Of a stretch of DNA of 64,000 nt, positions 1 through 19,085 are shown piece by piece. Within the stretch, counting starts at the first letter, position 1. Every line of letters starts with the position of its first letter. Source of the DNA: Candidatus Levyibacteriota bacterium (lineage in GTDB: Bacteria > Patescibacteriota > Microgenomatia > Levybacterales > UBA12049); NCBI GenBank assembly GCA_009695045.1, contig SIBS01000002.1:26774-90773 (forward strand). The letters are read 5' to 3'. The position numbers and the translations under genes were made by a program. The notes beneath the pieces are model-generated. The model was not told the origin of the DNA and ran no database searches. It saw nothing but the letters and a program-made list of their open reading frames with translations.

Positions 1-789
1 CTAGATTATCATAAAAATTGGGATAATTATTTTATTACAAAAGCAAAACTTATTAAAAATGTAAAAATAGCAATATTAAATCGTGATGAGTTATATTTTG
101 ATAGATTGACTGAGCAAGCAAAAGGTAAAATTATTAGTTTTGGATTTTCATCAAAAGCTGAATATAATCAAAAAAAATTCCCATTAAATTTAAAAATTTT
201 AGGTGATTTTAATTTATTAAATGGTTGGGCAGCAGCAGCAGCGTGTAGTGAGGTCGGAATATCTTCAACTATAATTAAATCTGCTTTAAATAAATTTTCT
301 AGATTAAAAGGGAGAATGGAAGAAATTAAAAATAATAAAGGTCTTATGATTGTGGTAGATTTTGCTGCTACCCCTAATGGCTTAGAGCAGTCATTAAAAA
401 CTTTACGAAAAAAGACAAAGGGGAGACTTATTTCAGTTTTTGGATCAGCTGGGCAAAGAGATATTTCAAAAAGATTTTTAATGGGAAAAATTTCTGCTAA
501 ATTTGCCGATATAACGATAATAACAGCAGAAGATCCACGCGGAGAATTAAATAAGATTAATGAGCAAATTGCTAATGGCGCAAAAGAAGCAGGTGCAGAA
601 ATAAATAAAAACCTTTTTATTATTAATCGTCGTGAAAAAGCAGTAGCTTTTGCGATAAATAATATTTCGAAAATAGGAGATACAATTGGATTCTTTGGTA
701 AAGGTCATGAAGAATCAATGAATTATGATGGTAAAAAAGAAGAACTATATAGCGAATTTAATCAAATTAAAAAATCATTAAAAAAATAA
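1..789 (+). CDS. murE: UDP-N-acetylmuramoyl-L-alanyl-D-glutamate--diamino acid ligase MurE, C-terminal part (5' end lies outside the window)
   Basis: Frame 1 is open from nucleotide 1 with no upstream stop. The Mur-ligase C-terminal domain (VVDFAATPNGLEQSL...GRLISVFGSAGQRDISKRFLMGKISAKFADITIITAEDPRGE) aligns with the MurE pattern (VVDYAHTPDALEKAL...FGCGGDRDKGKR...TDDNPRTE). Confidence 0.7.
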   Translation, partial: LDYHKNWDNYFITKAKLIKNVKIAILNRDELYFDRLTEQAKGKIISFGFSSKAEYNQKKFPLNLKILGDFNLLNGWAAAAACSEVGISSTIIKSALNKFSRLKGRMEEIKNNKGLMIVVDFAATPNGLEQSLKTLRKKTKGRLISVFGSAGQRDISKRFLMGKISAKFADITIITAEDPRGELNKINEQIANGAKEAGAEINKNLFIINRREKAVAFAINNISKIGDTIGFFGKGHEESMNYDGKKEELYSEFNQIKKSLKK

Positions 790-790
790 A

Positions 791-2209
791 ATGAAAAAAA
801 AGAGAATCCATTTTGTAGGAATTAAAGGAGTTGGCATGACCCCATTAGCTATTATTGCAAAAGAAGCAGGCTGCGATGTGACTGGTTGCGATATTGATGA
901 AGAATTTATAACAGACAAATCACTTAAAAAGGCAGGAATAAATCCACTTATTGATTTTTCTATTGACCACGTTTTAGATTGCGATATTGTTGTATCAACT
1001 GGAGCACATGGTGGCATGGAAAATGAAGAAGTTAAACATGCAATAAAATTAGGTAAAAAAGTAATTCTTCAAGGTCAAGCAGTGGGCCTATATATGGATG
1101 GTGATTTATTTGAAAAAAAATATATAAAAGGAATTTCCGTACTAGGGGCGCATGGTAAAACTACAACTACGGCAATGATAGCAACAATATTTATGCATGC
1201 AAAAAAAGATCCATCATATCTCGTAGGAACAAGCGATATATTATCTTTAGGAAATGCAGGTCATTATGGAAAAGGTCAATATTTTATTGCAGAAGCAGAT
1301 GAATATATAAATGATTCAGATTTAGAAAAAAGAGCTAAGTTTTTATGGCAGCATCCAGAAATTGCTATTATTACAAATATTGAATTTGATCATCCAGATG
1401 TATACTCCACCATAGAAGATGTAATAACTTCTTTTACAAGTTTTATCAGCGGAATAAAGGCCGGCGGCTTATTGATAGGGCATGGTGATGATCCAATAGT
1501 AAAAAAATTATTAAAAGAGTTTAATGGACGTTCAATAATCTATGGAATAGGTACTCAAAATGATTTCTTATTAAGTCGTGTAAGCGTGCATGATGGTAGA
1601 ACATATTTTTGGGTAGATAGTTCAGGAGTATCACTAGGTGAATTTATGATACAAGTAATTGGTGAACACAATGCTCTTAATGCGCTTGCCGCAATAATAT
1701 GTTCAATAGAAGCAGGAATATCAGTTGAAACAATAAAAAAAGCACTTAATCAATTTAGTGGTACTAAGAGAAGATTTGAATTTCAAGGTAAATTAAAATC
1801 TGGCGCATTTTTATATGATGATTATGCACATCATCCTACAGAAATAAAAAAAACATTAGAGGCATGTAGGCAAAATTTTCCAAAATTAAAAATTATATGC
1901 ATATTTCAACCACATACATTTTCTCGAACAAAAAAATTATTTAATGATTTTATTCATATATTTCAAATTGTTGATACATTGATACTTACTGATATTTTTT
2001 CTTCAGGAAGAGAAAAAAATGATGGCACTGTTTCTTCGAGAGATATTTATCAAGAAATGACTAGATTTTATTCGAATATAATATATCTTCCTACTCTTTC
2101 TAATGTGATAGAATATTTGGAAAAGAAACAATATGGAAAAGATGTAATTATTATTACTATGGGCGCAGGCGATGTGTACAAAATTCAAAAAAATTTAATG
2201 ATGGAGTAG
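791..2209 (+). CDS. murC: UDP-N-acetylmuramate--L-alanine ligase
   Basis: N-terminus IHFVGIKGVGMTPLA matches the MurC motif HFIGIGGxGMS. P-loop GAHGKTTTTAMI and the DDYAHHP motif are present. Confidence 0.9.
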   Translation: MKKKRIHFVGIKGVGMTPLAIIAKEAGCDVTGCDIDEEFITDKSLKKAGINPLIDFSIDHVLDCDIVVSTGAHGGMENEEVKHAIKLGKKVILQGQAVGLYMDGDLFEKKYIKGISVLGAHGKTTTTAMIATIFMHAKKDPSYLVGTSDILSLGNAGHYGKGQYFIAEADEYINDSDLEKRAKFLWQHPEIAIITNIEFDHPDVYSTIEDVITSFTSFISGIKAGGLLIGHGDDPIVKKLLKEFNGRSIIYGIGTQNDFLLSRVSVHDGRTYFWVDSSGVSLGEFMIQVIGEHNALNALAAIICSIEAGISVETIKKALNQFSGTKRRFEFQGKLKSGAFLYDDYAHHPTEIKKTLEACRQNFPKLKIICIFQPHTFSRTKKLFNDFIHIFQIVDTLILTDIFSSGREKNDGTVSSRDIYQEMTRFYSNIIYLPTLSNVIEYLEKKQYGKDVIIITMGAGDVYKIQKNLMME

Positions 2210-2212
2210 TAT

Positions 2213-3190
2213 ATGGATAAACAATACAATAAGCTAATTAAGGAGTTCGGAGAAACTAATCTGAAAATAAATGAACCAATGAATGAGCATACATCATTCA
2301 AAATCGGAGGATCAGCTCAATATTATCTAACTGTCGATAAGATAGAAGATTTAATAAAAGCAGTTGTTGTTGCTAATGATTTAAGCATCCCCTATTTAAT
2401 AATTGGGGGAGGAACCAACATGATAGTTTCTGATAATGGTATTAAAGGTCTTGTAATTAAAAATAATTGTCGGGCATTTAAAGTTATAGACAAAAAAGAA
2501 ATTATTGAAAATCAAGAAATAGATGAATCCGAAATATTTATTTATACTGAATCAGGCGCAATTATGAATCTATTAGTTCGTTTTGCAATAGATCAGGGAT
2601 TAAGTGGTTTAGAATATCAACTTGGTCTTCCTGGAACCATAGGTGGAGGGATTTATATGAATTCTAATTTTGCTGGTAAACAAGTATTTGTTGGAAATAA
2701 TGTATATAGTGCTACATTGCTTACAAAAAGTGGGAAATTAAAAGAAGTTAATGATTCATATTTTAATTTTTCTTATGATAGGAGTATTTTACAAGATACT
2801 CATGAAACTATCTTGTCACTTGTTTTACGCTTTATTCCTGAAGATAAAAATATTTTACTTGAGAGAGCAATGGGTGCATTAGAGTATCGTAGATTAAGAA
2901 TGCCCAAGGAAATATCTACTGGCTTTACATATAGAAATATTTCTATTAATCAATCACCAAGAGATATGAGCTCAAATGATATTAAGTCAGCTATTAATTA
3001 TATTGAAGAAGCTGGCTTTGTAGGAAAAAGTATTGGGGATGTTGTGATTCATGAGCATCCTAATTTTATACTGAATATTGGTAATGCTAAGTCAAAAGAT
3101 GTAGTAAAATTATTTGCAATAGTAAAGGAAAAAATTTGGAATAAATTTGGCATACAATTACTTATGGAAACACATATTACCGGTATTTAA
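2213..3190 (+). CDS. murB: UDP-N-acetylenolpyruvoylglucosamine reductase
   Basis: FAD-binding N-terminus (EHTSFKIGGSAQYYL...IIGGGTNMIVSD) is typical of MurB. The gene sits between murC and murA. Confidence 0.85.
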   Translation: MDKQYNKLIKEFGETNLKINEPMNEHTSFKIGGSAQYYLTVDKIEDLIKAVVVANDLSIPYLIIGGGTNMIVSDNGIKGLVIKNNCRAFKVIDKKEIIENQEIDESEIFIYTESGAIMNLLVRFAIDQGLSGLEYQLGLPGTIGGGIYMNSNFAGKQVFVGNNVYSATLLTKSGKLKEVNDSYFNFSYDRSILQDTHETILSLVLRFIPEDKNILLERAMGALEYRRLRMPKEISTGFTYRNISINQSPRDMSSNDIKSAINYIEEAGFVGKSIGDVVIHEHPNFILNIGNAKSKDVVKLFAIVKEKIWNKFGIQLLMETHITGI

Positions 3191-3229: not shown

Positions 3230-4570
3230 ATGGATACATTTATAGTTCATGGAGGAAAAAAATTAAAAGGAGAAATTAGCGTATCTGGTGCAAAAAATGT
3301 TGCATTAAAAGTACTAGTTGCCTCATGTCTTACCGCTGATACAGTAATTATTCATAATATTCCTCATATTTCCGAAGTATCTATTATTATAAATATTATA
3401 AAATCACTTGGTGGAATAGTTGATATAGATGGTCATACTGTTAGTATTACTGTTGCTAGTGTTAATAATTTTGAAGTTCCCCTTGATAAGGCGGCTAAAA
3501 GTAGAAGTTCATCTCTGTTTATAGCTGCTTTATTAACTAGATTTGGAGAAGCAATTGTGCCAAATCCAGGTGGATGTCGTATAGGTGCTCGTCCGATAGA
3601 TCGTACAGTAGAAGGATTAAAGATATTGGGAGCTGAAATTGCTTATCATAGTGAGGATGGATATTTTCACGCAAAAATAAAAAATGGAGCCACTCGACTT
3701 CGTGGGTCTATATATAGATTTGATAAAAATTCTCATACCGGTACAGAGACATTAATTATAGCTGCTGTTTTAGCAGAGGGTAGGACAATAATTGAAAATG
3801 CTGCAGCTGAGCCTGAGGTAGATGAGCTCATCAGTCTTCTTGTTGCAATGGGCGCAAGGATTAAGCGAACGGAGTTGCGAACTATTATTATTGATGGTGT
3901 CAAGAAGCTAAATGGAGCAAGTTTTACGATTGGTCCTGATAGAAATGAAGTCATAACACTTGCTATAGCGGGTATTATTACTGGTGGAGATGTGATTATA
4001 AAAAATGTAAAAAAACAAGATATACTCGAATTTATTAAAAAAATTGAAATTGCTGGTGGCGGTTGTGAAATTGTGAAAAATGGAATTAGATTTTTTTCAA
4101 AAGGACCACTTTCTCCAACTGATATTACCACTGCTCCTTTTCCTGGTTTTATGACTGATTGGCAAAGTCCATGGGCAGTTCTTATGACGCAGGCGGAAGG
4201 CATATCCATAATACATGAGTCAGTATATGAATCACGTTTTAGTTATGTTGAAGAACTTAGGAAAATGGGTGCTCAAATAGAATTATTTAATCCAGAGGTA
4301 TTAAATCCACAAAAATTTTATAATTTTAATCTTAATGACGACAAGGAAGATAATTTTCATGCTGCAAAAATTTATGGACCTACAATTCTACATAATAGCA
4401 TAGTAACAATTTCTGATTTAAGAGCAGGAGCAACTATTGTTCTTGCGGCTCTAGCAGCAAAGGGAAAAAGCGTTATTTTCGGAGTAGATCAAATAGATAG
4501 GGGATATGAAAATTTAGAGATTCGTCTTAATCAATTAGGAGCAGATATAATTAGAGAGAAAAATGAATAA
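3230..4570 (+). CDS. murA: UDP-N-acetylglucosamine 1-carboxyvinyltransferase
   Basis: N-terminus (GGKKLKGEISVSGAKNVALKVLVAS), length and EPSP-synthase-like fold signature, with the active-site Cys region (GGCRIGARPIDR). Confidence 0.9.
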   Translation: MDTFIVHGGKKLKGEISVSGAKNVALKVLVASCLTADTVIIHNIPHISEVSIIINIIKSLGGIVDIDGHTVSITVASVNNFEVPLDKAAKSRSSSLFIAALLTRFGEAIVPNPGGCRIGARPIDRTVEGLKILGAEIAYHSEDGYFHAKIKNGATRLRGSIYRFDKNSHTGTETLIIAAVLAEGRTIIENAAAEPEVDELISLLVAMGARIKRTELRTIIIDGVKKLNGASFTIGPDRNEVITLAIAGIITGGDVIIKNVKKQDILEFIKKIEIAGGGCEIVKNGIRFFSKGPLSPTDITTAPFPGFMTDWQSPWAVLMTQAEGISIIHESVYESRFSYVEELRKMGAQIELFNPEVLNPQKFYNFNLNDDKEDNFHAAKIYGPTILHNSIVTISDLRAGATIVLAALAAKGKSVIFGVDQIDRGYENLEIRLNQLGADIIREKNE

Positions 4571-5312
4571 TAAAACTGCTGTAATCATATTGGCTGGAGG
4601 TCGTGGAAAGCGAATGCAGTCAAAAAATATAAATAAAGTAGCACTTTCCGTGGGTAATAGGCCAATGATTGTGCATATTGTTGATCTTTTTGTATCCATT
4701 GGCATAAATATAATAATAGTAGTAATTGGCTATGCTAAAAAATCTGTAATAAATGCACTTATTGATTTTCCAGTTATATTTGCAGAACAAAAAAAGCGCC
4801 TAGGCACAGCACATGCAGTTAAATGTGGCTTAAGGGAGCTTCCGGAAAATATCTCTAATGTATTAGTTTTGCAAGGTGATGATTCTGCATTTTATTCAAA
4901 AAAATTATTGCAATCACTTTTAGAAATACATCTTAAAGATAATGCAGATTTGACTTTTCTCACAATAGAAGTTGATAATCCTTATGGATTGGGTAGAATT
5001 ATTAGAGATAAATCAAATAAAATAATAGCAATTGTTGAAGAAAAAGATGCAAATGATGAGCAAAAAAAGATTAAAGAAATAAATCCAGCTTGCTATGTAT
5101 TTCGAGTAGAATTTTTGAAAAAATATATAAATAAAATTAAAAAAAGTCTTGTCACTAAAGAATATTATTTAACAACCCTTATAGATATAGCAAAGCAAAA
5201 AAATAAAATAATATCTAACGTAATGGGTGGTAATCTAATGTGGCGTGGAATTAATACAAAAGAAGAATTAGCTGAAGCAGAAAGATTATTTTTGCAGAAA
5301 AAAATAATATGA
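4563..5312 (+). CDS. glmU: Sugar-1-phosphate nucleotidyltransferase (GlmU N-terminal, uridyltransferase-like domain) as a separate ORF
   Basis: N-terminal motif AVIILAGGRGKRMQS matches the LAAGxGTRM motif of NDP-sugar pyrophosphorylases. A left-handed beta-helix ORF follows directly, with an ATGA overlap. Confidence 0.7.
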   Translation: MNNKTAVIILAGGRGKRMQSKNINKVALSVGNRPMIVHIVDLFVSIGINIIIVVIGYAKKSVINALIDFPVIFAEQKKRLGTAHAVKCGLRELPENISNVLVLQGDDSAFYSKKLLQSLLEIHLKDNADLTFLTIEVDNPYGLGRIIRDKSNKIIAIVEEKDANDEQKKIKEINPACYVFRVEFLKKYINKIKKSLVTKEYYLTTLIDIAKQKNKIISNVMGGNLMWRGINTKEELAEAERLFLQKKII

Positions 5313-5944
5313 AATTTAATACAGAAAATTATTTTTTACTAGATAATTTTTATTATAAAGATATATTTAATAATATTGAAAATATTTGGGAAGTATTGCC
5401 AAAGCTTGAAGAGTATTTATCGTCTCTATTTATTGATGGAAAAGTTATTGGAAATTATAAAGATAAAAAAAATATTTATATAGGGGAAGGCACAGTTATT
5501 CATGAAGATGTTAATATAGAAGGACCAGTTGTCATTGGAAAAAATTGCCTTATTACGCATGGTTCTTATATTCGATCAGGATGCTTGATTGGCGATAATG
5601 TTCGAATTGGCCATGGCGTGGAAATAAAAAGATCTATATTTCTTAATAACTCAATAGTTGCGCATTTAAATTATATTGGTGATAGTATTATTGGAAATAG
5701 TGTAAATATTGCAGGTGGAGCAATGTTGGCTAATCTCCGTTTTGATAAAAAAGATGTAATACTAAGATATGGAGATAAAATAATTAGTACAGGTCTGCAA
5801 AAATTTGGAGCAATATTGGGTGATAATGTTAGCATAGGTGCTAATGCAGTTCTAAATCCAGGAACATTGCTTGGTAAAAGGGTGATTGTTTATCCGTTAC
5901 AATTTGTGAAAGGTGTTTATATAGAAAATGAGATTATTAGATAG
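5309..5944 (+). CDS. Hexapeptide-repeat (left-handed beta-helix) acyltransferase, GlmU C-terminal acetyltransferase-like domain as a separate ORF
   Basis: Repeated [LIV]-G-x-x-x-x hexapeptides (IGKNCLITHGSYIRSGCLIGDNVRIGHGVEIKRS...IGDSIIGNSVNIAGGAMLAN...LGDNVSIGANAVLNPG). Confidence 0.65.
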   Translation: MKFNTENYFLLDNFYYKDIFNNIENIWEVLPKLEEYLSSLFIDGKVIGNYKDKKNIYIGEGTVIHEDVNIEGPVVIGKNCLITHGSYIRSGCLIGDNVRIGHGVEIKRSIFLNNSIVAHLNYIGDSIIGNSVNIAGGAMLANLRFDKKDVILRYGDKIISTGLQKFGAILGDNVSIGANAVLNPGTLLGKRVIVYPLQFVKGVYIENEIIR

Positions 5945-6431
5945 TGCTAAAAAAATAATGATATTGTTCGATATAGACTATACATTATTTGATACAGAAA
6001 ATTTTAAACAATCAAATCTTAAAAGTCATTTAATCTATCCAGAAGTAAAAGATGTACTTTCAAGTTTAGATAAAATTGCTGTGCTAGGAATATTATCAGA
6101 AGGGGATATTGTTTTTCAAATGAAAAAACTTAAGAGGTGTAAGATTGATAATTTTTTCTCTGATAAACATATACATATTATTTTACAAAAAAATAGTACG
6201 ATGTATGAGATTCTTGATATATATAAAAATAATAGAATATTTATAGTAGATGATAAACTTTCTTTTCTTAGAGAAATTAAATTGTATATGCCTTCACTTT
6301 TTACTATCTGGGTAAAACGAGGGCCATATGCAATGAATAGGCAATCTTTTAATGATTTTACACCAGATGCAGCTATAATAAATCTGACATTTATTAATAA
6401 TATTATTAGAGAAAGAATGGGTGTTAATTAA
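5928..6431 (+). CDS. Small HAD-superfamily hydrolase/phosphatase
   Basis: HAD motif I (FDIDYTLFD, i.e. DxDxT) near the N-terminus and a motif IV-like IVDDK. 167 aa. Confidence 0.55.
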   Translation: MRLLDSAKKIMILFDIDYTLFDTENFKQSNLKSHLIYPEVKDVLSSLDKIAVLGILSEGDIVFQMKKLKRCKIDNFFSDKHIHIILQKNSTMYEILDIYKNNRIFIVDDKLSFLREIKLYMPSLFTIWVKRGPYAMNRQSFNDFTPDAAIINLTFINNIIRERMGVN

Positions 6432-6434: not shown

Positions 6435-8198
6435 ATGTGTGGAATATTTGGATATATTGGTAATCAAAATAATGCAGCTGAATCCACATTGGAGGGGTTG
6501 AAATTATTAGAATATAGAGGATATGATTCTTGGGGTATTGCCGTAAAGGATGGTAAAAATATTATCGTGGAGAAACATGTGGGTAAAATTGGTCAAGCAA
6601 AAACATCTCTGCCCAAAAGCTCACTCGGAATTGGTCATACTAGATGGGCAACTCATGGTGGAGTAACTGTGGAAAATTCGCATCCACATCTAGATTGTAG
6701 GAAAGAAATTGCAGTTATTCATAATGGTATTATAGAAAATTTCAAAGATTTAAAAAATGAATTACTGGCAAAAAATCATATATTTCTGTCTGAAACAGAT
6801 ACAGAAATTTTGCCACATCTTATTGAAGAATATCTAAAGACAGAAGAATTTTCATCCGCAGTTAGGGATGCATTTAATAGATTAAAGGGTTTAAATGCTG
6901 TTGTTGTTGCATATTCGCCCTCAGAAGAGATAATTGCTGCTAAAACAGGATCACCATTAGTAGTGGGATTAGGCGTAAATGAATTTTATGTCGCATCAGA
7001 TGTTTCTGGAATAATAAATCATACTCGTAGAATATTATTTGTAGAAGATAATCAAATGGTTATTTTAGGTAAAAAATTAAAATTAATTAGTTTATCAAGC
7101 GGTGATGAGATTCAGCCAGTATTTAATGATATTGACTGGAAATTTGAGCAATCAGATAAAGGCGATTTCAAGCATTTTTTTATGAAAGAAGTAAGTGAGC
7201 AGCCAAAAGTAGTAAAAAATATAGCATTAAATTACAAAGCTGAATCGGAAAAATTGGCAGATCTTATTGATAAGGCATTTGGGACTTTTATGCTGGGATG
7301 TGGAACAGCATCTTACGCGGCATTGGCAGGGACATACCTTTTTTCTAGAATTGCAAAAAAACATATTAATTTTTCAATTGGATCTGAATTTATGTATCTT
7401 GAGGATTATTTAACGCAAAAAAGTCTTATTATTCCAATTTCTCAAAGCGGTGAAACAATTGACGTAGTTGAGCCTGTTGCAAAAGCACTGAAAAAAGGAG
7501 CTAAAATTGCAGCAATAATAAATGTATTGGGCTCTACTCTTTATAGGCAAGCAGATTATAAATTCCTACTCGGAGCAGGTCCAGAGAAAGCAGTTGTAGG
7601 AACAAAAAGTTTTATTGCAATGATTGCAATGCTAATTTTAACCGCTTATACCCTAGCTAAGAAGCAATCAAAAGGTAAAGATCTTCTTATTAAGAGTGCG
7701 GAAAATATTGAAAATATTTTAAAAGTTGATTTTATTGAAAAGATAAAAATTATTGCTGATGATTTGAAAAATAAAGAACACATTTATATTATTGGGAGAG
7801 GATTATCATATGCTACAGCAGTTGAAGCAACATTAAAAATTAAAGAAACAAGCTGTATACATGCAGAAGGTTTTGCTGGGGGAGAATTAAAGCATGGCGT
7901 AATTGCGCTTATTGAAAAAGGTACACCATGCATTGTGTTTGCTCCAAATGATGAGACCTATGATGATATTATTTCCAATGCTGAAGAAATAAATGCTCGC
8001 GGAGGATTTATTATAGGAATTGGTCCTAAAAATAATGATGTATTTGATAGATTTTTACAAACTGATGATATCGGTGAGGCCACAATGATTCCTCAAGTGG
8101 TAATCTCTCAAATTTTAGCATATCAGCTTGCTCTCAAGCGAGGCATAGAAGATCCAGATAAGCCAAGAAATCTTGCTAAAAGTGTTACAGTTAAATGA
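6435..8198 (+). CDS. glmS: Glutamine--fructose-6-phosphate aminotransferase (isomerizing)
   Basis: N-terminal nucleophile MCGIFGY (Cys2), a glutaminase domain, then two SIS domains. 587 aa; C-terminus ends with the typical ...TVK. Confidence 0.92.
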   Translation: MCGIFGYIGNQNNAAESTLEGLKLLEYRGYDSWGIAVKDGKNIIVEKHVGKIGQAKTSLPKSSLGIGHTRWATHGGVTVENSHPHLDCRKEIAVIHNGIIENFKDLKNELLAKNHIFLSETDTEILPHLIEEYLKTEEFSSAVRDAFNRLKGLNAVVVAYSPSEEIIAAKTGSPLVVGLGVNEFYVASDVSGIINHTRRILFVEDNQMVILGKKLKLISLSSGDEIQPVFNDIDWKFEQSDKGDFKHFFMKEVSEQPKVVKNIALNYKAESEKLADLIDKAFGTFMLGCGTASYAALAGTYLFSRIAKKHINFSIGSEFMYLEDYLTQKSLIIPISQSGETIDVVEPVAKALKKGAKIAAIINVLGSTLYRQADYKFLLGAGPEKAVVGTKSFIAMIAMLILTAYTLAKKQSKGKDLLIKSAENIENILKVDFIEKIKIIADDLKNKEHIYIIGRGLSYATAVEATLKIKETSCIHAEGFAGGELKHGVIALIEKGTPCIVFAPNDETYDDIISNAEEINARGGFIIGIGPKNNDVFDRFLQTDDIGEATMIPQVVISQILAYQLALKRGIEDPDKPRNLAKSVTVK

Positions 8199-8920
8199 AT
8201 AAAAATTCTTTAAATAAAAAAATTCTGCCTATTATTATTTTGCACGGATGGGGATTAAGCACTCTGGTTTATAAAAATATTGTAAAAATTCTGAAGAAGA
8301 GAAATCACAGAGTTTATGTATTTGATTTTCCAGGATTTGGAGAAGAACCATTAGGAAATAATAGAGTTCTAAGTGATTATGTCATTTTTTTAAAAAATTA
8401 TTTAGAAAAAAGAAAAATTAAGAAATGTATATTAATAGGTCATTCTTTTGGTGGAAGGATTGCATTAAAATTTTCAATTAAATATCCTATTAATGTTGAT
8501 AAAATTATTCTTACTGGTGTTCCGGTGATTCGTCATAATGGAATGAAGCAAATTATAGCAGGTATCATAGCTTTTTTTGGAAAAAAAATAATATGTATTT
8601 TTCCTAAGTTTTTAGAAATTTTATTTAGGAAATTACTTTATCGTTTGATTGGGGAATCGGATTATATTAGGGCAGGAAAACTTAAAGATTTGTTTACTAA
8701 TATAATTACAGAAGATATATCGGGTTATTTTCGTGATTCTATTGTTCCAATATATTTAATTTGGGGAGAGAGTGACTCAATCACACCAGTATCAGATATA
8801 TCTATTATGAAAAAAATAAGACCAAATATAAAATATATTATTATTCCCAATACTGGACATCGATTACCATATGAAAATTCATTTATTTTTGCAAATGAAT
8901 TAGAGAACTATATTCTATGA
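8195..8920 (+). CDS. Alpha/beta-fold hydrolase (esterase/lipase-like)
   Basis: ILHGWG oxyanion region and nucleophile elbow GHSFGG; a C-terminal GHRLP segment is consistent with the catalytic His. Confidence 0.6.
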   Translation: MNKNSLNKKILPIIILHGWGLSTLVYKNIVKILKKRNHRVYVFDFPGFGEEPLGNNRVLSDYVIFLKNYLEKRKIKKCILIGHSFGGRIALKFSIKYPINVDKIILTGVPVIRHNGMKQIIAGIIAFFGKKIICIFPKFLEILFRKLLYRLIGESDYIRAGKLKDLFTNIITEDISGYFRDSIVPIYLIWGESDSITPVSDISIMKKIRPNIKYIIIPNTGHRLPYENSFIFANELENYIL

Positions 8921-11777: not shown

Positions 11778-12774
11778 CGATAAAAAACAATGGACTAATT
11801 TTCTTTCAAAAAAAGAAATTATATACTATCCACTTTTTCAATCATGGAATTGGGGCGAGGTTCAAAAAGCACTAGGATTCTCTATAATTAGAATTGGTTT
11901 ATTTGATAATGATAAATTAGTAGCTGTTTGTTTAATCATAGATATCATCGCAAAGCGTGGGCATTATCTACATCTTCGTCATGGGCCAGTTATCTTAGAT
12001 AAAAATATCGTTTATATTAATGCAATAGTTAATTATGTAAAGAAAATTGCTAAGGAAAAGAAAGCAAAATTTATTAGAATGAGTCCATTATGGGAAAAAA
12101 AGATTGTTGATATAAAATATCTAAAAAATAATGGATGCATTGATGCTCCAATTTATAATATGGATGCTGAATATTGTTGGGTACTAGATATATCAAAATC
12201 TGAAAAAGAACTTCTTTCGGACATGCGTAAGTCTCATCGTTATCTTATACGTAAATCACTTAAAATGCATATTGAGATATCAAAAACAAATGATGTTAAA
12301 GCAGTAGATGATTTCCTTTTATTATATAAAGATCTCTCTGATCGAAAACATTTTGTTCCACATAGAGGAATTAGAGAGGAAGTGATGTTTTTTGGACAAG
12401 ATAATGAAGCACTTCTTTTATTAGCTAGCTGGAATAATGAAATAGCAGGTGGAGCTGTTATTGATTTTGTTGGAAAAATGGCAATATATCATCATGGAGC
12501 AACTCTCTCAAGGTATCGAGATATTCCCCTTTCCTATATTATTCAGTGGCAGGCTATTTTGGAAGCAAAAAAGCGAGGTATGAAAATATATAATTTTTGG
12601 GGAATTGCACCGCTAAATCAGCCTAATCATCCATGGCAAGGTCACACACTTTTTAAAATGGGATTTGGTGGAGAAGTTTGTGAATTTGTACATGCCCAAG
12701 ACATACCGTTATCACTTGATTATTGGCGAAGTTGGATTATTGAAAAAATAACAAAGAAGCTGAAGGGATATTAA
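11755..12774 (+). CDS. FemABX-family peptidoglycan peptidyltransferase (aminoacyl-tRNA-dependent)
   Basis: Conserved Fem-family C-terminal motif YIIQWQAILEAKKRGMKIYNFWGI (compare YLLQWEAIKYAKEKGYKxYDFGGI). About 340 aa with two GNAT-like halves. Confidence 0.7.
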   Translation: MLEIKEVNDKKQWTNFLSKKEIIYYPLFQSWNWGEVQKALGFSIIRIGLFDNDKLVAVCLIIDIIAKRGHYLHLRHGPVILDKNIVYINAIVNYVKKIAKEKKAKFIRMSPLWEKKIVDIKYLKNNGCIDAPIYNMDAEYCWVLDISKSEKELLSDMRKSHRYLIRKSLKMHIEISKTNDVKAVDDFLLLYKDLSDRKHFVPHRGIREEVMFFGQDNEALLLLASWNNEIAGGAVIDFVGKMAIYHHGATLSRYRDIPLSYIIQWQAILEAKKRGMKIYNFWGIAPLNQPNHPWQGHTLFKMGFGGEVCEFVHAQDIPLSLDYWRSWIIEKITKKLKGY

Positions 12775-12854
12775 TACATAGTTAATCGGTTCTTATGTGT
12801 TTAATTCTTTATCTGTTTGCTATTAAAATCAATCACATGATATAATTACTTCTT

Positions 12855-13862
12855 ATGGGACAACTTTTAGGACTTCTTATTATGTCTTTTTTTATATCTG
12901 GAATTCTGTTCATTCCTTTTATAGATTTTCTCTATAAAATAAAACTTCAGAGACAAAAACAAATCACAAAAGACATGTTTAATAAGCATACGCCAATTTT
13001 TGATAAATTTAATTCTTGGAAAGTTGGCACACCGTTTGGAGGAGGTATTCTTATAATAATTGTAGTTACATTGCTTACATTTTGGTCATATGGAGTCTTT
13101 GGTGTAAAGGTAAAGCCATGGGAATTATTTGTATTATTATTTTCATTTATAGGATTTGGATTATTAGGATTATATGATGATATTAAAAAATTATTCCCTG
13201 ACAATAAAGCATTTTTTGGTCTTTCTTTTACTGTAAAATTTCTTATTCAATGGATAATTGCTTTTATTTTAGCTTCTGTATTATATATTAATCTTGGCTA
13301 TTCATTTATTTTTATTCATGGATTTGGATTGGCAAATATTGGATTTTTATATATTCCTATTGCTGCATTTATTATTGTATCTTTTGCTAATGCATTCAAT
13401 ATTGCTGATGGTTTAGATGGACTTGCTTCTGGGCTTCTTTTAATTTGTTTAGGATCTTTTTTAGCAATTTCTTCAACAGCATTAGATCAGGGATTGGGCA
13501 TGTTTATATCTATTCTTATGGGAAGCGTTGGTGCTTTTTTATATTTTAATATTTATAAAGCTCGAATATGGCTTGGAGACGTTGGCTCAATGGCGCTTGG
13601 TGCATCACTTGGAATAATAGGTCTTCTAACAGGAAAAATTATCGCTGTTGCATTTATTGGTGGCGTTTTTGTATTAGAGGCAGGTTCATCACTTTTACAA
13701 ATTTTGAGTAAAAAATTCTTCGGAAAAAAAGTATTTCCTGTATCTCCGCTTCATCTTTATTTACAACGACATGGATGGGAGGAGCCAAAAATTGTCATGC
13801 GTGCTTGGTTACTTGGATTTCTCTTTGCTATTATTGGTCTATACTTCGCTTTCATCGGTTAA
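12855..13862 (+). CDS. mraY: Phospho-N-acetylmuramoyl-pentapeptide transferase
   Basis: Polytopic membrane protein with the NAFNIADGLDGLASG motif and GDVGSMALG. Confidence 0.92.
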   Translation: MGQLLGLLIMSFFISGILFIPFIDFLYKIKLQRQKQITKDMFNKHTPIFDKFNSWKVGTPFGGGILIIIVVTLLTFWSYGVFGVKVKPWELFVLLFSFIGFGLLGLYDDIKKLFPDNKAFFGLSFTVKFLIQWIIAFILASVLYINLGYSFIFIHGFGLANIGFLYIPIAAFIIVSFANAFNIADGLDGLASGLLLICLGSFLAISSTALDQGLGMFISILMGSVGAFLYFNIYKARIWLGDVGSMALGASLGIIGLLTGKIIAVAFIGGVFVLEAGSSLLQILSKKFFGKKVFPVSPLHLYLQRHGWEEPKIVMRAWLLGFLFAIIGLYFAFIG

Positions 13863-13935: not shown

Positions 13936-15000
13936 ATGAAAAAAATAGATTTTACGCTTTTTTTTACAGTTATTATATTGTCATTATTTGGTCTTTTTAT
14001 GATTTATAATGCATCTTCATTTATTGCTTTCAGAGATTTTTCTGATAAATACCATTATGTAAAAGATCAATTATTATGGTTAATCCTTGGATTTATAGGA
14101 TTAGTTTTCTTTTCATTATTTGATTATAAAAGATTGTATTATTTATTTTTACCAATATTAATTTGTATATTTTTGTTATTAATCTCAGTTTTTTTACCAA
14201 TAATTGGTGTATACGTATTAGGAGCGCACAGATGGATTAATTTCGGATTTTTTGTACTTCAACCAAGTGAATTAGTAAAACTTGGTTTAGCTATATGCTT
14301 ATCTGCTTGGTTTTCTGACAACGAAAAAGGTAGATTTGGTCCAGCCTGTATTATTATAATAATGATAATTATCTTGGTTATGATTGAGCCAGATATGGGA
14401 ACTGCTGTTGTCCTACTTCTTGAGTCGATAGTTATATATTTTCTATCTGGTGGAAGCATATTTAATCTTTTTATGATTATTCCTTTAATCTTCACAGCTG
14501 GATACATAGCAATTAAAATAGCTCCTTATAGGGCAGAACGCTTACTTGAACATATGGGAGTTTATTATTCCATTGATAAGACTTCTTATCATGTAAAACA
14601 AATTCTTATCGCATTAGGTTCTGGTGGAATTACAGGGATTGGTTTTGGTAATTCGCTTCAGAAATATGCATATTTGCCAGAAAATACAACAGATTCAATC
14701 TTTGCAATTATTGCTGAAGAATACGGTCTAGTTGGGGGTGGATTACTCTTATCAGTTTATATATTCTTAATATGGAGAGGGATACATATTGCTAAAAATA
14801 CAAAAGATTCATTTGGAAAACTACTCAGTGCAGGAATAATTACTTTTTTAGGGATTCAGGCACTGATTAATTTAGGTGCTCAATCAGCATTAATTCCTTT
14901 AACTGGTATTCCATTGCCCTTTATTTCTTATGGTGGTTCAGCAACCGTGGTGAATTTATGCTCTATTGGTATTTTGCTTAATATTTCAAAAAAAATATGA
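13936..15000 (+). CDS. ftsW: SEDS-family peptidoglycan glycosyltransferase/lipid II flippase FtsW
   Basis: SEDS motifs (QPSELVKLGL, PENTTDSIFAIIAEEYGLVGG, PFISYGGSA); dcw position between mraY and murG. Confidence 0.85.
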   Translation: MKKIDFTLFFTVIILSLFGLFMIYNASSFIAFRDFSDKYHYVKDQLLWLILGFIGLVFFSLFDYKRLYYLFLPILICIFLLLISVFLPIIGVYVLGAHRWINFGFFVLQPSELVKLGLAICLSAWFSDNEKGRFGPACIIIIMIIILVMIEPDMGTAVVLLLESIVIYFLSGGSIFNLFMIIPLIFTAGYIAIKIAPYRAERLLEHMGVYYSIDKTSYHVKQILIALGSGGITGIGFGNSLQKYAYLPENTTDSIFAIIAEEYGLVGGGLLLSVYIFLIWRGIHIAKNTKDSFGKLLSAGIITFLGIQALINLGAQSALIPLTGIPLPFISYGGSATVVNLCSIGILLNISKKI

Positions 15001-16118
15001 AGATAATAATTGCATCTGCTGGGGGTGGTCATTTCTCTCCCGTTCTATCTGTTATAAAAAGATTGTCAAAAGCAGAAGTTATTGTTATTGGAAGAAAATA
15101 TGGAATTGAGGGAGATAGAACAGCAGAATCATTGGAATATAAAATTTGTAAAAGTCTTGATCTTCGTTTTATTTCTTTGACAACTGGTAGATTGCAGCGT
15201 AAATTTACAAAATATACTCTTTTATCACTTGCAAAAATTCCATTTGGAATTATTCAATCATTCACATTTTTAATAAAAGAAAAACCTGACATTGTTCTTT
15301 CGTTTGGTGGATATATTGGTATTCCTGTTGTTGTATCTGCATGGTTACTTAATATACCAGTAATTATTCATGAACAAGCTCTTACTATTGGACTTGGAAA
15401 TAAGTTTGCAGCAATTTTTGCTAAAAAGGTTTGTATTTCATGGGAAACATCTTTACCTTTTTTTCCAAATAAAAAAACAGTCCTTACAGGTAATCCTATA
15501 AAAGATGAATTTATAAATCTAGATGTAGATAACATTAATCCCGTTAAGTTTGGATTTAAATCTAAAAATCCATTGTTATATATAACTGGAGGAAGCATTG
15601 GATCTCACAGTATTAATAATTTAGTAGAAAAATCACTTCCTGACTTGCTTCAATCCTGTAATGTATTACATCAAACAGGAGACGCTACTGAGTTTAATGA
15701 TTTTAATAGATTGATTCAGTTACGAAAAAATCTACCTGAGAATTTGAGACAAAATTATATTATTAAAAAATTTTTGACAAGTAAAGAAGCAGTGGAAGCT
15801 ATTACTTCTGCTAATCTTGTTATTTCTCGTGCAGGAATAGGCACAATCACAGAGCTGCTTTATATTGGTGTTCCTAGCATTATATTACCTATTCAAGATA
15901 ATTTAGAACAAGAAGCTAATGCAGTTTTTATTGAAGAAAAAGGATCTGCGGAAATTATAAGATCAATTAATGCAACGTCTCAAAATTTCATAGAAGTAGT
16001 AAATAAAATGATTTTAAATGAAAGTAAATATAGAAATATGGCACAAAAAAATAAAAAACTTATTAAAAAAGATTCTGCAGATAAAATAGTTGCAGTTTTG
16101 CAAGATTATCTAAAATAG
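14997..16118 (+). CDS. murG: Undecaprenyldiphospho-muramoylpentapeptide beta-N-acetylglucosaminyltransferase
   Basis: N-terminus IIIASAGGGHFSPVLSV (compare the MurG motif GGTGGHxxPAL); GT28 architecture; position after ftsW. Confidence 0.88.
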   Translation: MKIIIASAGGGHFSPVLSVIKRLSKAEVIVIGRKYGIEGDRTAESLEYKICKSLDLRFISLTTGRLQRKFTKYTLLSLAKIPFGIIQSFTFLIKEKPDIVLSFGGYIGIPVVVSAWLLNIPVIIHEQALTIGLGNKFAAIFAKKVCISWETSLPFFPNKKTVLTGNPIKDEFINLDVDNINPVKFGFKSKNPLLYITGGSIGSHSINNLVEKSLPDLLQSCNVLHQTGDATEFNDFNRLIQLRKNLPENLRQNYIIKKFLTSKEAVEAITSANLVISRAGIGTITELLYIGVPSIILPIQDNLEQEANAVFIEEKGSAEIIRSINATSQNFIEVVNKMILNESKYRNMAQKNKKLIKKDSADKIVAVLQDYLK

Positions 16119-16120: not shown

Positions 16121-16558
16121 ATGATAAAAATACATCGTAGGGAAAAAAAGAACAGATTTATTATCCGTTTATATATGATCGTATTTCTGATCATTGTTTT
16201 TTCCCCAGCCATATGTCTATATATCTTATTTAGAACACAAAAATTATTTATAAGTCCATTGCCCAAATCTGTCCATAGGATAGAAAAAAAAATAGCCATA
16301 TATTCTCAATCCGTTAAGGAGTTAGAGTTGCTTTTAGTTAATAAAAAAATACACTTCTTATCAATTAAAGAAGATAATAATCTATCGGCATTTATTATTT
16401 TATTAAAAAATAAAGGTGAGATAATTTTATCTTTAGAAAAAAACCTAGAAGAGCAAGTAGCCTCTTTACAATTAATACTAACTAGATTTACAATAGAAGG
16501 TAAGGGTGTTCGTAGCCTTGATTTTCGTTTCAATAAACCAGTTATTGTATTTTTATAA
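16121..16558 (+). CDS. Minimal FtsQ/DivIB-like division protein (single N-terminal TM, short periplasmic domain)
   Basis: Bitopic topology (basic N-terminus, TM IVFLIIVFSPAICLYILF). The synteny slot between murG and ftsA is normally occupied by ftsQ. Sequence similarity itself is weak; 145 aa. Confidence 0.4.
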   Translation: MIKIHRREKKNRFIIRLYMIVFLIIVFSPAICLYILFRTQKLFISPLPKSVHRIEKKIAIYSQSVKELELLLVNKKIHFLSIKEDNNLSAFIILLKNKGEIILSLEKNLEEQVASLQLILTRFTIEGKGVRSLDFRFNKPVIVFL

Positions 16559-16564: not shown

Positions 16565-17869
16565 ATGAGTGATAGTAAAATATTTATTGGAGTTGATATT
16601 GGTACTTCAAAAATTGTTACCGTTATCGCACAGATTGATGAAAACATTAATATTATCGGTGTTTCAGAAATAAAATCTGTTGGAATTAAAAAAGGTCAAA
16701 TTGTAGATATTGAAAATGCAGTTAATTCTATAATTAAATCTCTTGAAGCTGCAGAACGTATGGCTGGATATGGTGCTAAGAATGTTTTCGTTTCAGTTGG
16801 AGGAAGTCATATTGAAAGTCAAAATTCTAATGGAACCGTTGCTGTTTCCTCAAAGCAAGTAGAAATAACTCAGAATGATATTGATCGTGTTATTGATTCA
16901 GCAAGAGCAGTTACGATGCCTTCTTATCGTCAAATTATTCATGTTCTTCCTCGTAATTTTACCGTTGATGGTCAGGAAGGGATAAAAGATCCAATTAGCA
17001 TGACTGGATATGTCTTAAAAGTTGATGCACATATTATTACTGCTAACATTACAAATATTCGAAATATAGAAAGAGCACTTAATGAGGCAGGTGTAAATAT
17101 AGATAATTTTGTTTCAATTGGCTATGCAAGTAGTTTAGCAGTTCTTACTGATACTGAAAAAGAACTAGGCATTGTTCTTGTTGATATTGGATCTGGAACA
17201 ACTAGTATATGTATTTACATAGATGGATCTGTTTCTTTTTCGTCAGTAATTCCTATAGGTGCACGTCATATAACTAGTGATTTGGCGCTTGGACTTAGAA
17301 TATCTATAGAAAGTGCTGAAAAAATAAAGATTCATCTTTCGGGATGCGTAGTTAGAAAAACTATTCGACCAGATGATTTAGAAGGATTATCAGAAAATAA
17401 AATTATAGATAAATCTGATGAACTAGATATTAGCCTCCTTGATATACCAGAAGAATTGAAAAAAATATCTAAAAAAACTTTGATAGAAGGGATTATTAGG
17501 CCGAGGCTTAATGAAATCTTCACTATGGTTGGTCTTGAGATAAAAAGAAGTGGTTATGGTGGAAAAACACCTGCTGGATTAGTTGTTACTGGTGGGGGAT
17601 CAAAAACAGTAGCTATGACAGAAGCTGCTAAGAGAATGCTTTTAATGCCAGTAAGAATTGGTAACCCAAAAGATTTAAAAGGAATTGTTGATGAGGCTGA
17701 TGATCCTTCATTTTCTGCTGTCATTGGTCTTTGTATATTTGCATCTAAAAAAAATTTAAAATCTGAAAATACATTACCATTTAGTTTTTCACTTTCAAAT
17801 ATTCAATTACAATCATTTTATAAATTTTTTAAAAAAATTACCAATCTAATAAAATCTCTTATGCCTTGA
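16565..17869 (+). CDS. ftsA: Cell division protein FtsA
   Basis: Actin-like ATPase; FIGVDIGTSKIVTVIAQ N-terminus and DIGSGTT phosphate-2 motif. Confidence 0.92.
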   Translation: MSDSKIFIGVDIGTSKIVTVIAQIDENINIIGVSEIKSVGIKKGQIVDIENAVNSIIKSLEAAERMAGYGAKNVFVSVGGSHIESQNSNGTVAVSSKQVEITQNDIDRVIDSARAVTMPSYRQIIHVLPRNFTVDGQEGIKDPISMTGYVLKVDAHIITANITNIRNIERALNEAGVNIDNFVSIGYASSLAVLTDTEKELGIVLVDIGSGTTSICIYIDGSVSFSSVIPIGARHITSDLALGLRISIESAEKIKIHLSGCVVRKTIRPDDLEGLSENKIIDKSDELDISLLDIPEELKKISKKTLIEGIIRPRLNEIFTMVGLEIKRSGYGGKTPAGLVVTGGGSKTVAMTEAAKRMLLMPVRIGNPKDLKGIVDEADDPSFSAVIGLCIFASKKNLKSENTLPFSFSLSNIQLQSFYKFFKKITNLIKSLMP

Positions 17870-17960
17870 TATTTTTTCTAAAATATAAAAAGTTAATTAT
17901 ATTTATTATTCAATTTGCTTATTGCAAAATTTATTCTCTTTTGTTAGGATTTGTTCACAC

Positions 17961-19085
17961 ATGTTGATAAGACCTCAATCTACTAACTTTGCCAAAATAC
18001 GCGTTTTGGGCGTAGGTGGTGGTGGAAGTAATGCTGTTAATTCAATGATATCTCAAAGCAAGATACAAAACGTTGATTTTATCGTAATTAATACTGATGC
18101 CCAGGCACTTCTTAATAGTCAATGTTCTATTAAATTACAAATTGGTGAAGGGATTACTAAGGGGCTTGGGTCTGGAGGAGATCCTGAAATTGGAAAACAA
18201 GCCGCAGAGGAGAGTCGTGAAAAGATTAAAGATATGCTTGAGGGTTCCAATATGGTTTTTATTGCATCAGGCATGGGTGGTGGAACCGGAACTGGTGCAG
18301 CTCCAATTGTTGCTCAAATAGCGAAAGAAATTGGCGCACTGACAATAGCAGTTGTTACTAAGCCATTTATTTTTGAGGGAACTCGTCGCATGGTTTCTGC
18401 TGAAGAGGGCCTGGAAGAACTTAAGGGAAAAGTGGATACACTTATAGTAATTCCAAATCAGCGAATTTTAGATGTCGTTGATAAAAAATTATCTCTTTTA
18501 GAAGCATTTCGTGTTGCTGATTCGGTTTTGTCTCAAGGTGTGCAGGGAATTTCTGATCTTATTACAATGCCCGGTTTAATAAATGTTGATTTTGCAGATG
18601 TTAGATCTATAATGACTGACGCAGGCTCGGCTCTTATGGGTATCGGCACAGGTGTTGGAGAGAATCGTGCTCAAACCGCAGCAAGGAGTGCGGTTGCATC
18701 CCCCTTGTTAGAAATATCTATGGATGGCGCAAGAGGTGTTCTTTTTAACATTATAGGAGGTCCTGATCTTGCGATGAGTGAAGTGGATGAAGCTGCTAAA
18801 ATTATTGCAGCAGCTGCTGATCCTGATGCTAATATAATATTTGGTGCAACAATAGATAATAATATGCATGATCAACTTAAGGTTACATTAATTGCAACTG
18901 GATTCGATAACAATAAACAAAGACTTAAAGAATTTATGCCTAGACAGTCACAAATAGTTCAATCAGTAGATTATGGACAATCTAATCATTCATCGGCACC
19001 AATAAATCAGATAATAGATGAATCAAAACAGCAAAAAGAAGATGATGAATTTGAAATCCCCGCATTCTTAAGAGAGAGGAATTAA
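17961..19085 (+). CDS. ftsZ: Cell division GTPase FtsZ
   Basis: [11 protein letters not shown] and [10 protein letters not shown] tubulin signature; C-terminal FtsA/ZipA-binding peptide [11 protein letters not shown]. The ORF track begins at a TTG at 17922; the in-frame ATG at 17961 (MLIRPQ...) is the more likely start. Confidence 0.92.

Follow-up and report, generated by a model that had tools for sequence, protein, structure and literature searches.

The division and cell wall (dcw) cluster of Escherichia coli (reference locus L083) runs mraZ-rsmH-ftsL-ftsI-murE-murF-mraY-murD-ftsW-murG-murC-ddlB-ftsQ-ftsA-ftsZ. The longest form described, with 17 genes, includes murA, murB, and ddlB (PMC8871954), and murA and murB likewise lie within the longest dcw form in a second account (PMC10214165). 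The complete 17-gene cluster occurs in Acetohalobium arabaticum, of the Halanaerobiales, and by inference was already present in the last bacterial common ancestor (PMC8871954). In the literature we searched, outside which fell Megrian et al. 2022, the main survey with candidate phyla radiation (CPR) genomes, we met no account of a dcw cluster that contains glmS or glmU. Here, we examine a 64,000-nucleotide stretch of contig SIBS01000002.1 from Candidatus Levyibacteriota bacterium (assembly GCA_009695045.1), hereafter the window, in which positions 1-19085 hold 18 consecutive open reading frames (ORFs), all on the + strand. In our assessment, this locus is very likely the dcw cluster of Candidatus Levybacteria (Microgenomates, CPR/Patescibacteria), typical of its lineage, enlarged, and arranged as three or four co-oriented units. 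Positions 1-19085 are the 3′ four-fifths of the full cluster, which extends from mraZ to ftsZ.

Results

An initial annotation of the window had described the 18 co-directional genes as a peptidoglycan super-operon, and the ORF listing bore out their number and common strand. Its gene names mostly fit the Pfam and NCBIfam assignments, by which no fewer than 14 of the 18 genes serve a single pathway or machine. With 10 kb of upstream sequence included in the source locus (L001, in which window position 1 is position 9211), the full order is mraZ-rsmH-ftsL-ftsI, then murE-murC-murB-murA-glmU(N)-glmU(C)-HAD-glmS-hydrolase-murF-DegT-femX, then mraY-ftsW-murG-ftsQ′-ftsA, and finally ftsZ, the breaks marking putative transcription units. 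The cluster is genuine and tightly packed, and it joins UDP-N-acetylglucosamine (UDP-GlcNAc) synthesis (glmS and glmU), UDP-N-acetylmuramic acid (UDP-MurNAc)-peptide synthesis, and divisome genes. The small gaps and ATGA overlaps reported earlier were confirmed: among the 17 junctions of the 18 genes, 8 are overlaps (4 of them ATGA), 5 are gaps of 1-6 nt, and 4 are gaps of 39, 80, 73, and 52 nt, such that 13 of 17 junctions overlap or lie no more than 6 nt apart and no gap exceeds 80 nt. Shine-Dalgarno motifs are nearly absent from the cluster and window, and Rfam and tRNA scans gave no match inside the cluster. The same gene order was present on contigs from three separate samples, recognized by an exact MurC protein match, and mis-assembly is therefore unlikely.

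We compared the locus with those of relatives, whose ORFs were labelled by blastp against the window proteins and E. coli MurD, DdlB, GlmM, and FtsQ. Six Levybacteria relatives (L091, L092, L093, L094, L085, and L003), with MurF proteins 47-64% identical to that of the window, share the order (ftsI)-murE-murC-(murB)-murA-glmU-(HAD)-glmS-hydrolase-murF-DegT-femX; L093 is a closed genome (CP066685.1). After femX, L093 and L094 continue with mraY-ftsW-murG, an ORF of about 140 aa, ftsA, and ftsZ, L091 continues with mraY-ftsW-murG to its contig end, and L003 has two opposite-strand ORFs without assignment before its contig end. Gottesmanbacteria (L008, L011, L024, and L086) have the same backbone with a fused glmU, no glmS, and a PgeF/YfiH gene between murE and murC, and the Pacebacteria locus L010 reads mraZ-rsmH-ftsL-ftsI-murE-murC-murA-hydrolase-murF-DegT-femX-mraY-murD-ftsW-murG-ftsQ-ftsA-ftsZ. 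Across the Microgenomates-type loci examined (Levybacteria, Gottesmanbacteria, and Pacebacteria), murC, murB, and murA are placed between murE and murF. The glmS gene was found in 7 of 7 Levybacteria loci and in none of the other 80-odd listed loci, and recruitment of glmU is shared by Gottesmanbacteria and Levybacteria, with HAD and glmS recruited in Levybacteria only. Since the same order recurs in six relatives, with its backbone in other Microgenomates, the arrangement is the norm of the lineage, not the peculiarity of this genome that it had been taken for.

The PgeF/YfiH-family gene (PF02578) between murE and murC was located at L008 3490-4209, L024 3492-4205, and L031 5196-5897, and is not in the Levybacteria clusters. 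This family includes a peptidoglycan editing factor.

The true start of the cluster, mraZ, lies outside the window. Upstream of murE, the genes are, in order, mraZ and rsmH (mraW), identified as MraZ and Methyltransf_5 genes, then an ftsL-like gene and ftsI (together L001 6419-8376), and then a 108-aa gene on the opposite strand. The ftsL-like product is a 94-aa single-pass transmembrane protein with no Pfam match, which we call FtsL-like by position and topology only. FtsI is a 558-aa class B penicillin-binding protein (PBP) with PBP_dimer and Transpeptidase domains. The initial annotation had listed ftsL and ftsI among the missing genes; as both lie just to the left of position 1, their apparent loss reflects where the window begins. 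The 108-aa gene on the opposite strand (L001 8383-8709, - strand) encodes a tRNA-binding domain (PF01588) and is not at the ftsI/murE position in L003, L093, or L094.

Ahead of mraZ, three AAGTGG[T/G] boxes come after a promoter-like site, TTGACA-17-TAAATA (L001 4965-5036, ~4.2 kb left of window position 1). These boxes have an exact 10-nt spacing and lie 60-80 nt before mraZ, and the window and L001, 85 kb together, contain no second such triple. Pacebacteria L010 has a similar set, AAGTGGT/AAGTAGT/AAGTAGT. The triple resembles known MraZ binding sites, and by this analogy it looks like an MraZ operator.

The murE gene itself spans the window edge. Its full length is L001 8815-9999 (394 aa), with the start 396 nt left of the window and the 3′ two-thirds at 1..789 (+ strand), for which TIGR01085 was the best match and Mur_ligase_M and Mur_ligase_C domains were found. 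The MurE P-loop begins at residue 32, and the protein seems to lack its N-terminal UDP-binding domain, just as the MurF variant described below lacks the canonical N-terminal domain. MurE is 385-421 aa long in most of the set comprising this genome, L003, L008, L093, and L094, versus 495 aa in E. coli.

Measured against a dcw cluster, the locus has mraZ-rsmH at its 5′ end with MraZ-type repeats as the putative operator, ftsL and ftsI before murE, the genes murE, murF, mraY, ftsW, murG, and murC all on one strand, and ftsQ-ftsA-ftsZ at its 3′ end, the gene in the FtsQ slot being truncated. Missing from the cluster are murD and ddl.

The individual assignments of the Mur-ligase, lipid II, and divisome genes, all on the + strand, were for the most part unambiguous. 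Following murE are murC, for the UDP-MurNAc:L-Ala ligase (791..2209; TIGR01082, 402 bits against a cut-off of 335; three Mur ligase domains), murB, for UDP-N-acetylenolpyruvoylglucosamine reductase (2213..3190; FAD_binding_4 and MurB_C; NF010480, 201 bits, E 1e-59), and murA, for UDP-GlcNAc enolpyruvyl transferase (3230..4570; TIGR01072, 443 bits against a cut-off of 393). After femX come mraY, for the phospho-MurNAc-pentapeptide translocase (12855..13862; Glycos_transf_4; TIGR00445, 170 bits, E 8e-50), ftsW, for a SEDS glycosyltransferase (13936..15000; PF01098, 300 bits; TIGR02614, 312 bits), and murG (14997..16118; Glyco_transf_28 N and C domains; TIGR01133, 219 bits). The last two genes are ftsA (16565..17869; TIGR01174, 370 bits against a cut-off of 176) and ftsZ (17922..19085; TIGR00065, 436 bits against a cut-off of 295); the ftsZ ORF opens with TTG at 17922, and translation more probably starts from the ATG at 17961.

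Between murG and ftsA, a 145-aa ORF (16121..16558) encodes a transmembrane segment (residues 11-40) and a beta domain at the C-terminus; it matched no Pfam or NCBIfam family and has no POTRA domain. A profile of its Levybacteria orthologues matched FtsQ-slot proteins, including E. coli FtsQ, over the C-terminal 80 residues (hhalign probability 97.3%, E 1.7e-11). The longer FtsQ-slot proteins of other CPR carry an FtsQ-type POTRA domain. Because its homology is C-terminal and the POTRA domain is lacking, we regard the ORF as a truncated FtsQ/DivIB-like protein; the earlier FtsQ-like label holds for those 80 residues only.

We then considered how the cluster might be transcribed. A candidate internal promoter (12817..12846, + strand) consists of TTGCTA, an 18-nt spacer, and TG-n-TATAAT, with the -10 ending 8 nt before the mraY ATG, as in a leaderless type. 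On the + strand, the 64 kb contain TGnTATAAT only three times, in every case in intergenic DNA just before a gene. In 4 of 4 Levybacteria genomes, including L091, L093, and L094, TATAAT lies 2-8 nt before mraY, and it lies 7-11 nt before murE in 4 of 4 Levybacteria genomes, within intergenic DNA that has otherwise diverged. For genes preceded by a gap of 30 nt or more, an exact TATAAT fell 6-10 nt before the start in five cases, and the remaining 29 offsets together gave four, so that TATAAT is enriched ~7-fold per position at 6-10 nt. Individual TATAAT sites include 12841-12846, 23716-23721, 24778-24783, 30641-30646, and 35226-35231. This placement, with the scarcity of Shine-Dalgarno motifs, suggests that leaderless transcription may be widespread in this genome. 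Before ftsZ, a conserved and putatively functional extended -10-like element, TGTTAGGAT, is at 17942..17950 (+ strand), and all three genomes compared (this genome, L093, and L094) have either TGTTAGGAT or TGTTAGCAT ahead of ftsZ. Nothing was conserved upstream of murA or ftsW across the Levybacteria genomes compared.

Because of the conserved -10 boxes and the opposite-strand gene between ftsI and murE, we favor three or four transcription units. An MraZ-controlled promoter would drive mraZ to ftsI, leaderless-type promoters directly before murE and before mraY would drive murE-femX (12 genes) and mraY-ftsA, and ftsZ would probably have its own promoter. The genes would be translationally coupled, with read-through possible between units, and the locus would supply UDP-GlcNAc, UDP-MurNAc-peptide, lipid II, the septal synthase, and the divisome together.

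The initial annotation had instead proposed one exceptional super-operon, in which a single transcript would carry all 18 genes and the whole route from fructose-6-phosphate to lipid II, an arrangement unusual for the organism. We judge this to be unlikely. The single strand, the 8 overlaps and 5 gaps of no more than 6 nt, the lack of a terminator-like site in any intergenic gap, and the lack, in the papers searched, of any account of glmS and glmU in a dcw setting all speak for it. Against it stand the shared order in six relatives, a cluster start that lies at mraZ, and the conserved -10 boxes before murE and mraY; taken with the opposite-strand gene and the -10-like element before ftsZ, these boxes make a single transcript improbable as the only mode of expression. 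Nor is the route complete, as the GlmM, MurD, and Ddl steps have no gene in the cluster. The claim that gene order follows pathway order survives only for murF, mraY, and murG, which do run forward; in the first half, murE-murC-murB-murA-glmU-glmS is exactly the reverse of the pathway.

The absence of murD, ddl, and glmM, as originally noted, was upheld: none was found in the cluster, the rest of the window, or 10 kb on each side (84 kb). E. coli MurD and DdlB gave no blastp match in the Levybacteria loci. The Pacebacteria cluster L010 has murD, and a MurD homologue search found it in other Microgenomates, with no Levybacteria label among the 120 matches listed.

Several points weigh against our reading of the locus as one enlarged dcw cluster with internal promoters. 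In L085 and L092 the cluster is interrupted downstream of femX, so the link between its two halves is not obligatory. The promoter calls are sequence motifs in a genome of 30% GC, and generic sigma-70 promoter and terminator scans returned counts no higher than those of shuffled sequence. The missing intergenic terminators would also permit a read-through transcript from murE to ftsZ. Finally, with murD, ddl, and glmM outside the 84 kb, the locus may not be a self-sufficient pathway unit.

The genes for UDP-GlcNAc synthesis form a contiguous part of the cluster. GlmU is encoded by two ORFs on the + strand, a bacterial-type uridyltransferase N half (4563..5312; TIGR01173 positions 2-240 of 452) and a C half with hexapeptide repeats, a left-handed beta-helix acetyltransferase (5309..5944; TIGR03992 positions 206-392, 175 bits) for which archaeal-type GlmU was the best match. 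The halves are joined by an ATGA overlap, and both domains are present, each scoring alone below the full-length cut-offs. This genome shares the split with L091 and L003; the other relatives have a fused gene (415-417 aa in L092-L094). A sequencing frameshift was ruled out as the cause of the split, which is the same in L003 and L091 at ~50% identity. Downstream, on the + strand, glmS encodes glutamine:fructose-6-phosphate amidotransferase (6435..8198; TIGR01135, 590 bits against a cut-off of 418).

Between glmU and glmS, a 167-aa ORF (5928..6431, + strand) encodes a nearly cap-less HAD-superfamily enzyme with the motif I sequence DIDYT. Its HAD matches are weak, with Pfam scores below the gathering cut-offs, and the AlphaFold2 (AF2) model (mean predicted local distance difference test [pLDDT] 92.7) has an HAD-IA-like core, with a Foldseek probability of 1.0 to HAD structures. 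The nearest solved structures are uncharacterized HAD-IA proteins, phosphatases, and putative beta-phosphoglucomutases. Residues D15, D17, T19, S57, K88, D108, and D109 are invariant, and DxDxT is intact. Only 41 homologues were found, all from Levybacteria where named. In 6 of 7 Levybacteria loci, L091-L094 among them, the gene sits between glmU and glmS, and in L085 (5636-7420) GlmU and HAD are fused into a 594-aa protein. Based on this conserved slot and the fusion, we link the enzyme functionally to UDP-GlcNAc synthesis; it appears restricted to Levybacteria, with phosphatase or phosphomutase as candidate roles.

The HAD superfamily includes phosphomutases, and an enzyme in this slot could fill the GlmM step (GlcN-6-P to GlcN-1-P), completing the hexosamine branch in the cluster. 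The conserved position, the fusion to GlmU, the invariant catalytic motifs on a modelled HAD fold, and the lack of glmM from the 84 kb examined would all be in keeping with this. We nevertheless hold it to be doubtful. The protein does not belong to the phosphohexomutase superfamily (alpha-D-phosphohexomutase fold with a phosphoserine loop), and it could only be a non-orthologous replacement for GlmM. A mutase role is disfavored because known HAD mutases carry a cap, which this 167-aa protein lacks almost entirely; its nearest structures are mainly phosphatases or uncharacterized proteins. The gene is lacking in L003, which keeps glmU and glmS, and relative L031 has a PGM/PMM-family gene, possibly a GlmM, just outside the cluster. 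Removal of pyrophosphate or of a sugar phosphate fits the data equally well.

The block that follows glmS comprises four genes on the + strand. The first encodes an alpha/beta-fold serine hydrolase (8195..8920; Abhydrolase_1/6), whose triad is conserved as Ser84 in 80 of 81 orthologues and as Asp194 and His222 in 81 of 81. The second encodes a MurF-like ligase of 533 aa (8917..10518), and the two are fused in one database protein, P0004. TIGR01143 matched residues 176-524 of the ligase at 230 bits, below its cut-off of 289, and this murF model aligned only from its position 68 onward; the next best Mur type, murD, scored 85 bits versus 230. In place of the canonical N-terminal (nucleotide-sugar-binding) domain, residues 1-177 form four long hydrophobic helices (AF2 pLDDT 88.7), the hydrophobic stretches falling within residues 1-165. 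The helical domain, in which Tyr33 is invariant (89/89), was found only at the N-terminus of its matches, which fell into 301 representative clusters (E ≤1e-3) and were ~520-570 aa when full length. The central ATP-binding and C-terminal domains are closest to MurF, the ten closest PDB structures to the model are all MurF, and P-loop residues G189 and K193 are invariant. The ligase is 100% identical to a protein that NCBI assigns to a Candidatus Levybacteria MAG, and the closest homologues are from Levybacteria and Microgenomates. Occupation of the MurF slot in the dcw clusters of Poribacteria and CPR supports a probable MurF role. We also considered a PgsB/CapB- or MurT-type ligase, which was ruled out, MurF being clearly best by sequence and structure.

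The third gene encodes a divergent DegT/DnrJ/EryC1-family pyridoxal phosphate (PLP) aminotransferase (10518..11777; PF01041, 219 bits) with a hydrophobic insert at residues 224-264. It has the hallmarks of a fold-type I PLP enzyme, with K188, the Schiff-base Lys, in SFGRDK and D159 as the pyridine-binding Asp; all 40 sequences compared keep D159, H162, S183, and K188. All NCBIfam equivalogs scored far below their cut-offs, and PDB matches spanned only residues 31-231. The fourth gene, femX, encodes a FemAB-family transferase (11755..12774; PF02388, 103 bits against a cut-off of 24) in which F300, K301, and F304 (an FK..FG motif) are conserved in 49 of 49 sequences. Its PDB matches, to Staphylococcus aureus FemA and FemX, are weak, as is its NCBIfam FemX score (25 bits against a cut-off of 500); from its family, the transferase is predicted to be aminoacyl-tRNA dependent.

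To follow this block beyond the Levybacteria, loci were gathered around MurF homologues by a genome-contig scan and a metagenome-contig scan (6 loci), with the Levybacteria relatives added individually; this gave 90 listed loci with a membrane-anchored MurF, the contig-scan listing being dominated by distant lineages. The hydrolase is directly 5′ of the membrane-anchored MurF in 83 of these 90. The gene after MurF is DegT in 45 listed loci, all CPR, and ddl in 28 (Clostridia, Bacteroidales, Poribacteria, and others), and femX lies within the next five genes in 39 of the 45. DegT and ddl never occurred in the same listed locus (0/45 and 0/28). Two loci with Saccharibacteria labels, L017 and L026, carry the hydrolase-murF-DegT-femX block. 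The ddl genes beside MurF are genuine, with both Dala_Dala_lig domains, and no ddl was found within 10 kb of the module in the 45 DegT-type loci, complete mraZ-to-ftsZ clusters among them. In L034 (5730-9235), a Parcubacteria-type locus, Pfam identified two synthetase genes 5′ of the block, a seryl-tRNA synthetase gene adjoining that of the hydrolase and one of class II Lys/Asx type farther upstream. ORFs of ~420 and ~490 aa, matched by size only, occupy the same positions in about 13 Parcubacteria-type loci, for example L019, L021, L028, L039, L045, and L047. These upstream synthetases may be linked to aminoacyl-tRNA use by the Fem-like enzyme. Hydrolase plus membrane-anchored MurF, with either Ddl or DegT/Fem, appears to be an unstudied module spanning several phyla; the literature searched gave nothing relevant on CPR ddl, a membrane-anchored MurF, a DegT-Fem pairing, or Levybacteria cell-wall genes.

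One interpretation is that DegT and Fem replace Ddl by making or modifying the unit that the membrane-anchored MurF adds, in which case CPR stem peptides would lack a Ddl-made D-Ala-D-Ala end. The mutual exclusion of DegT and ddl after MurF, the genuine ddl in non-CPR loci set against none near the CPR modules, the invariant catalytic residues of DegT, Fem, and hydrolase, and the seryl-tRNA synthetase of L034, with its ~420-aa counterpart in about 13 loci, are all compatible with this idea. A possible parallel, as a lead only, is DhpH of dehydrophos biosynthesis, in which a PLP transaminase is coupled to a Fem-like tRNA-dependent former of peptide bonds. Still, we think replacement of Ddl decidedly unlikely. 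The DegT type is confined to CPR loci and the ddl type to non-CPR loci, so that one or two evolutionary events could suffice for the pattern, and ddl may simply sit elsewhere in CPR genomes. The class B PBP, FtsI, is kept and normally needs a D-Ala-D-Ala donor, and DegT enzymes usually act on keto-sugars. A side-chain bridge on Lys-type peptidoglycan is a simpler role for Fem. We adopt this conservative reading, in which Fem would transfer a branch residue from tRNA onto a Lys-type stem peptide, DegT and the hydrolase would have accessory roles, and ddl would lie elsewhere in the genome; the MurT and GatD genes at 59888-61998 are consistent with it.

These MurT and GatD genes (- strand), which encode the lipid II isoglutamine synthase pair, adjoin gatCAB. 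Their presence implies that the stem peptide probably contains amidated iso-Gln, as in Lys-type Gram-positive walls.

With regard to strand, the + strand holds 35 of the 38 genes before 43.5 kb and the - strand 20 of 20 after it, and GC skew changes from positive to negative at about 42000-44300, matching the flip in orientation. Co-directionality is therefore weak evidence of coupling, as a shared strand is the background state in the window, and we argue functional coupling from overlaps, conserved order, and gene fusions. That the adjacency has no functional meaning and merely reflects this strand bias and the short gaps common across the whole window of a tiny genome is very improbable, given that at least 14 of 18 genes share one pathway or machine, that the order is retained at only 32-64% protein identity and across CPR classes, and that neighbors are fused (GlmU-HAD in L085 and hydrolase-MurF in P0004).

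Elsewhere in the window, the convergent point lies next to a tRNA-Thr gene (44234-44307) and could be a replication terminus. After ftsZ, a ~1 kb gene-poor stretch (19086-20074) has short ORFs only and no Rfam match; one of these (19452-19676, - strand, 74 aa) looks like a fragment of an S-adenosylmethionine-dependent methyltransferase. A wall-modifying group follows downstream of the cluster at 20660-25683, with a VanW-like gene (- strand), a YkuD L,D-transpeptidase, an Acyl_transf_3 membrane acyltransferase, and a polysaccharide deacetylase. At 26751-30631, a class I aminoacyl-tRNA synthetase gene shares its last 4 nt with the gene for a second SEDS protein, which is RodA-like (359 aa) and has no class B PBP gene adjoining.

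Discussion

The dcw cluster of Microgenomates and CPR has a conserved layout of its own, which annotators should expect, and gene absences at a window edge need to be checked against the source contig. In Levybacteria, almost the whole peptidoglycan precursor pathway, UDP-GlcNAc synthesis included, is gathered in one locus behind what would be few promoters, which fits extreme genome streamlining. The hydrolase-MurF-DegT-Fem module hints at an unstudied departure in wall chemistry and offers four enzymes to examine in the few cultivated Patescibacteria, and these could be lineage-specific drug or probe targets. If DegT and Fem did replace Ddl, CPR precursors would be built by a route unseen in model bacteria, and the final ligation might take place at the membrane.

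The initial annotation had counted glmS, glmU, murA, and murB as foreign to canonical dcw clusters. For murA and murB this does not hold, as both belong to the 17-gene form (PMC8871954); for glmS and glmU it stands within the literature searched. The novelty of the Levybacteria locus is the recruitment of glmU, HAD, and glmS, a CPR-wide hydrolase-MurF-DegT-Fem block in the place of ddl, and the absence of murD from the cluster.

Compared with the E. coli cluster, this locus has the same mraZ-rsmH-ftsL-ftsI start and ftsQ-ftsA-ftsZ end, the same relative order of mraY, ftsW, and murG, an apparent MraZ-box promoter at its 5′ end, and similarly tight packing on one strand. It differs from the classical form in that murC, with murB and murA, lies between murE and murF, that murD and ddl are absent and FtsQ is truncated, that an opposite-strand gene separates ftsI from murE, and that glmU, HAD, glmS, hydrolase, DegT, and femX are inserted. 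Like the 17-gene cluster, it has murA and murB inside; unlike it, it lacks murD and ddlB and includes hexosamine genes (PMC8871954). The positions of murA and murB also differ, being upstream of murF here and near murC, ddl, and ftsQ in the 17-gene cluster.

The module found in Clostridia, Bacteroidales, and Poribacteria (L036, L042, L056, L079, and others) has the same hydrolase, with its triad kept, directly before the same MurF variant, with Tyr33 invariant; the next gene there is a genuine ddl, whereas in CPR it is DegT, followed by femX. With FemX of Weissella viridescens and FemX/A/B of S. aureus, the tRNA-dependent transferases of branch peptides, the Fem-like protein shares membership of the Pfam FemAB family at distant similarity, and, as in bacteria with Lys-type bridged peptidoglycan, MurT and GatD are encoded in the window. 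Unlike known FemX, the Fem-like protein is always paired with a DegT aminotransferase, beside MurF. A PLP transaminase and a Fem-family transferase are likewise paired in DhpH, but as a single fused protein of secondary metabolism, whereas the CPR pair is encoded by separate genes.

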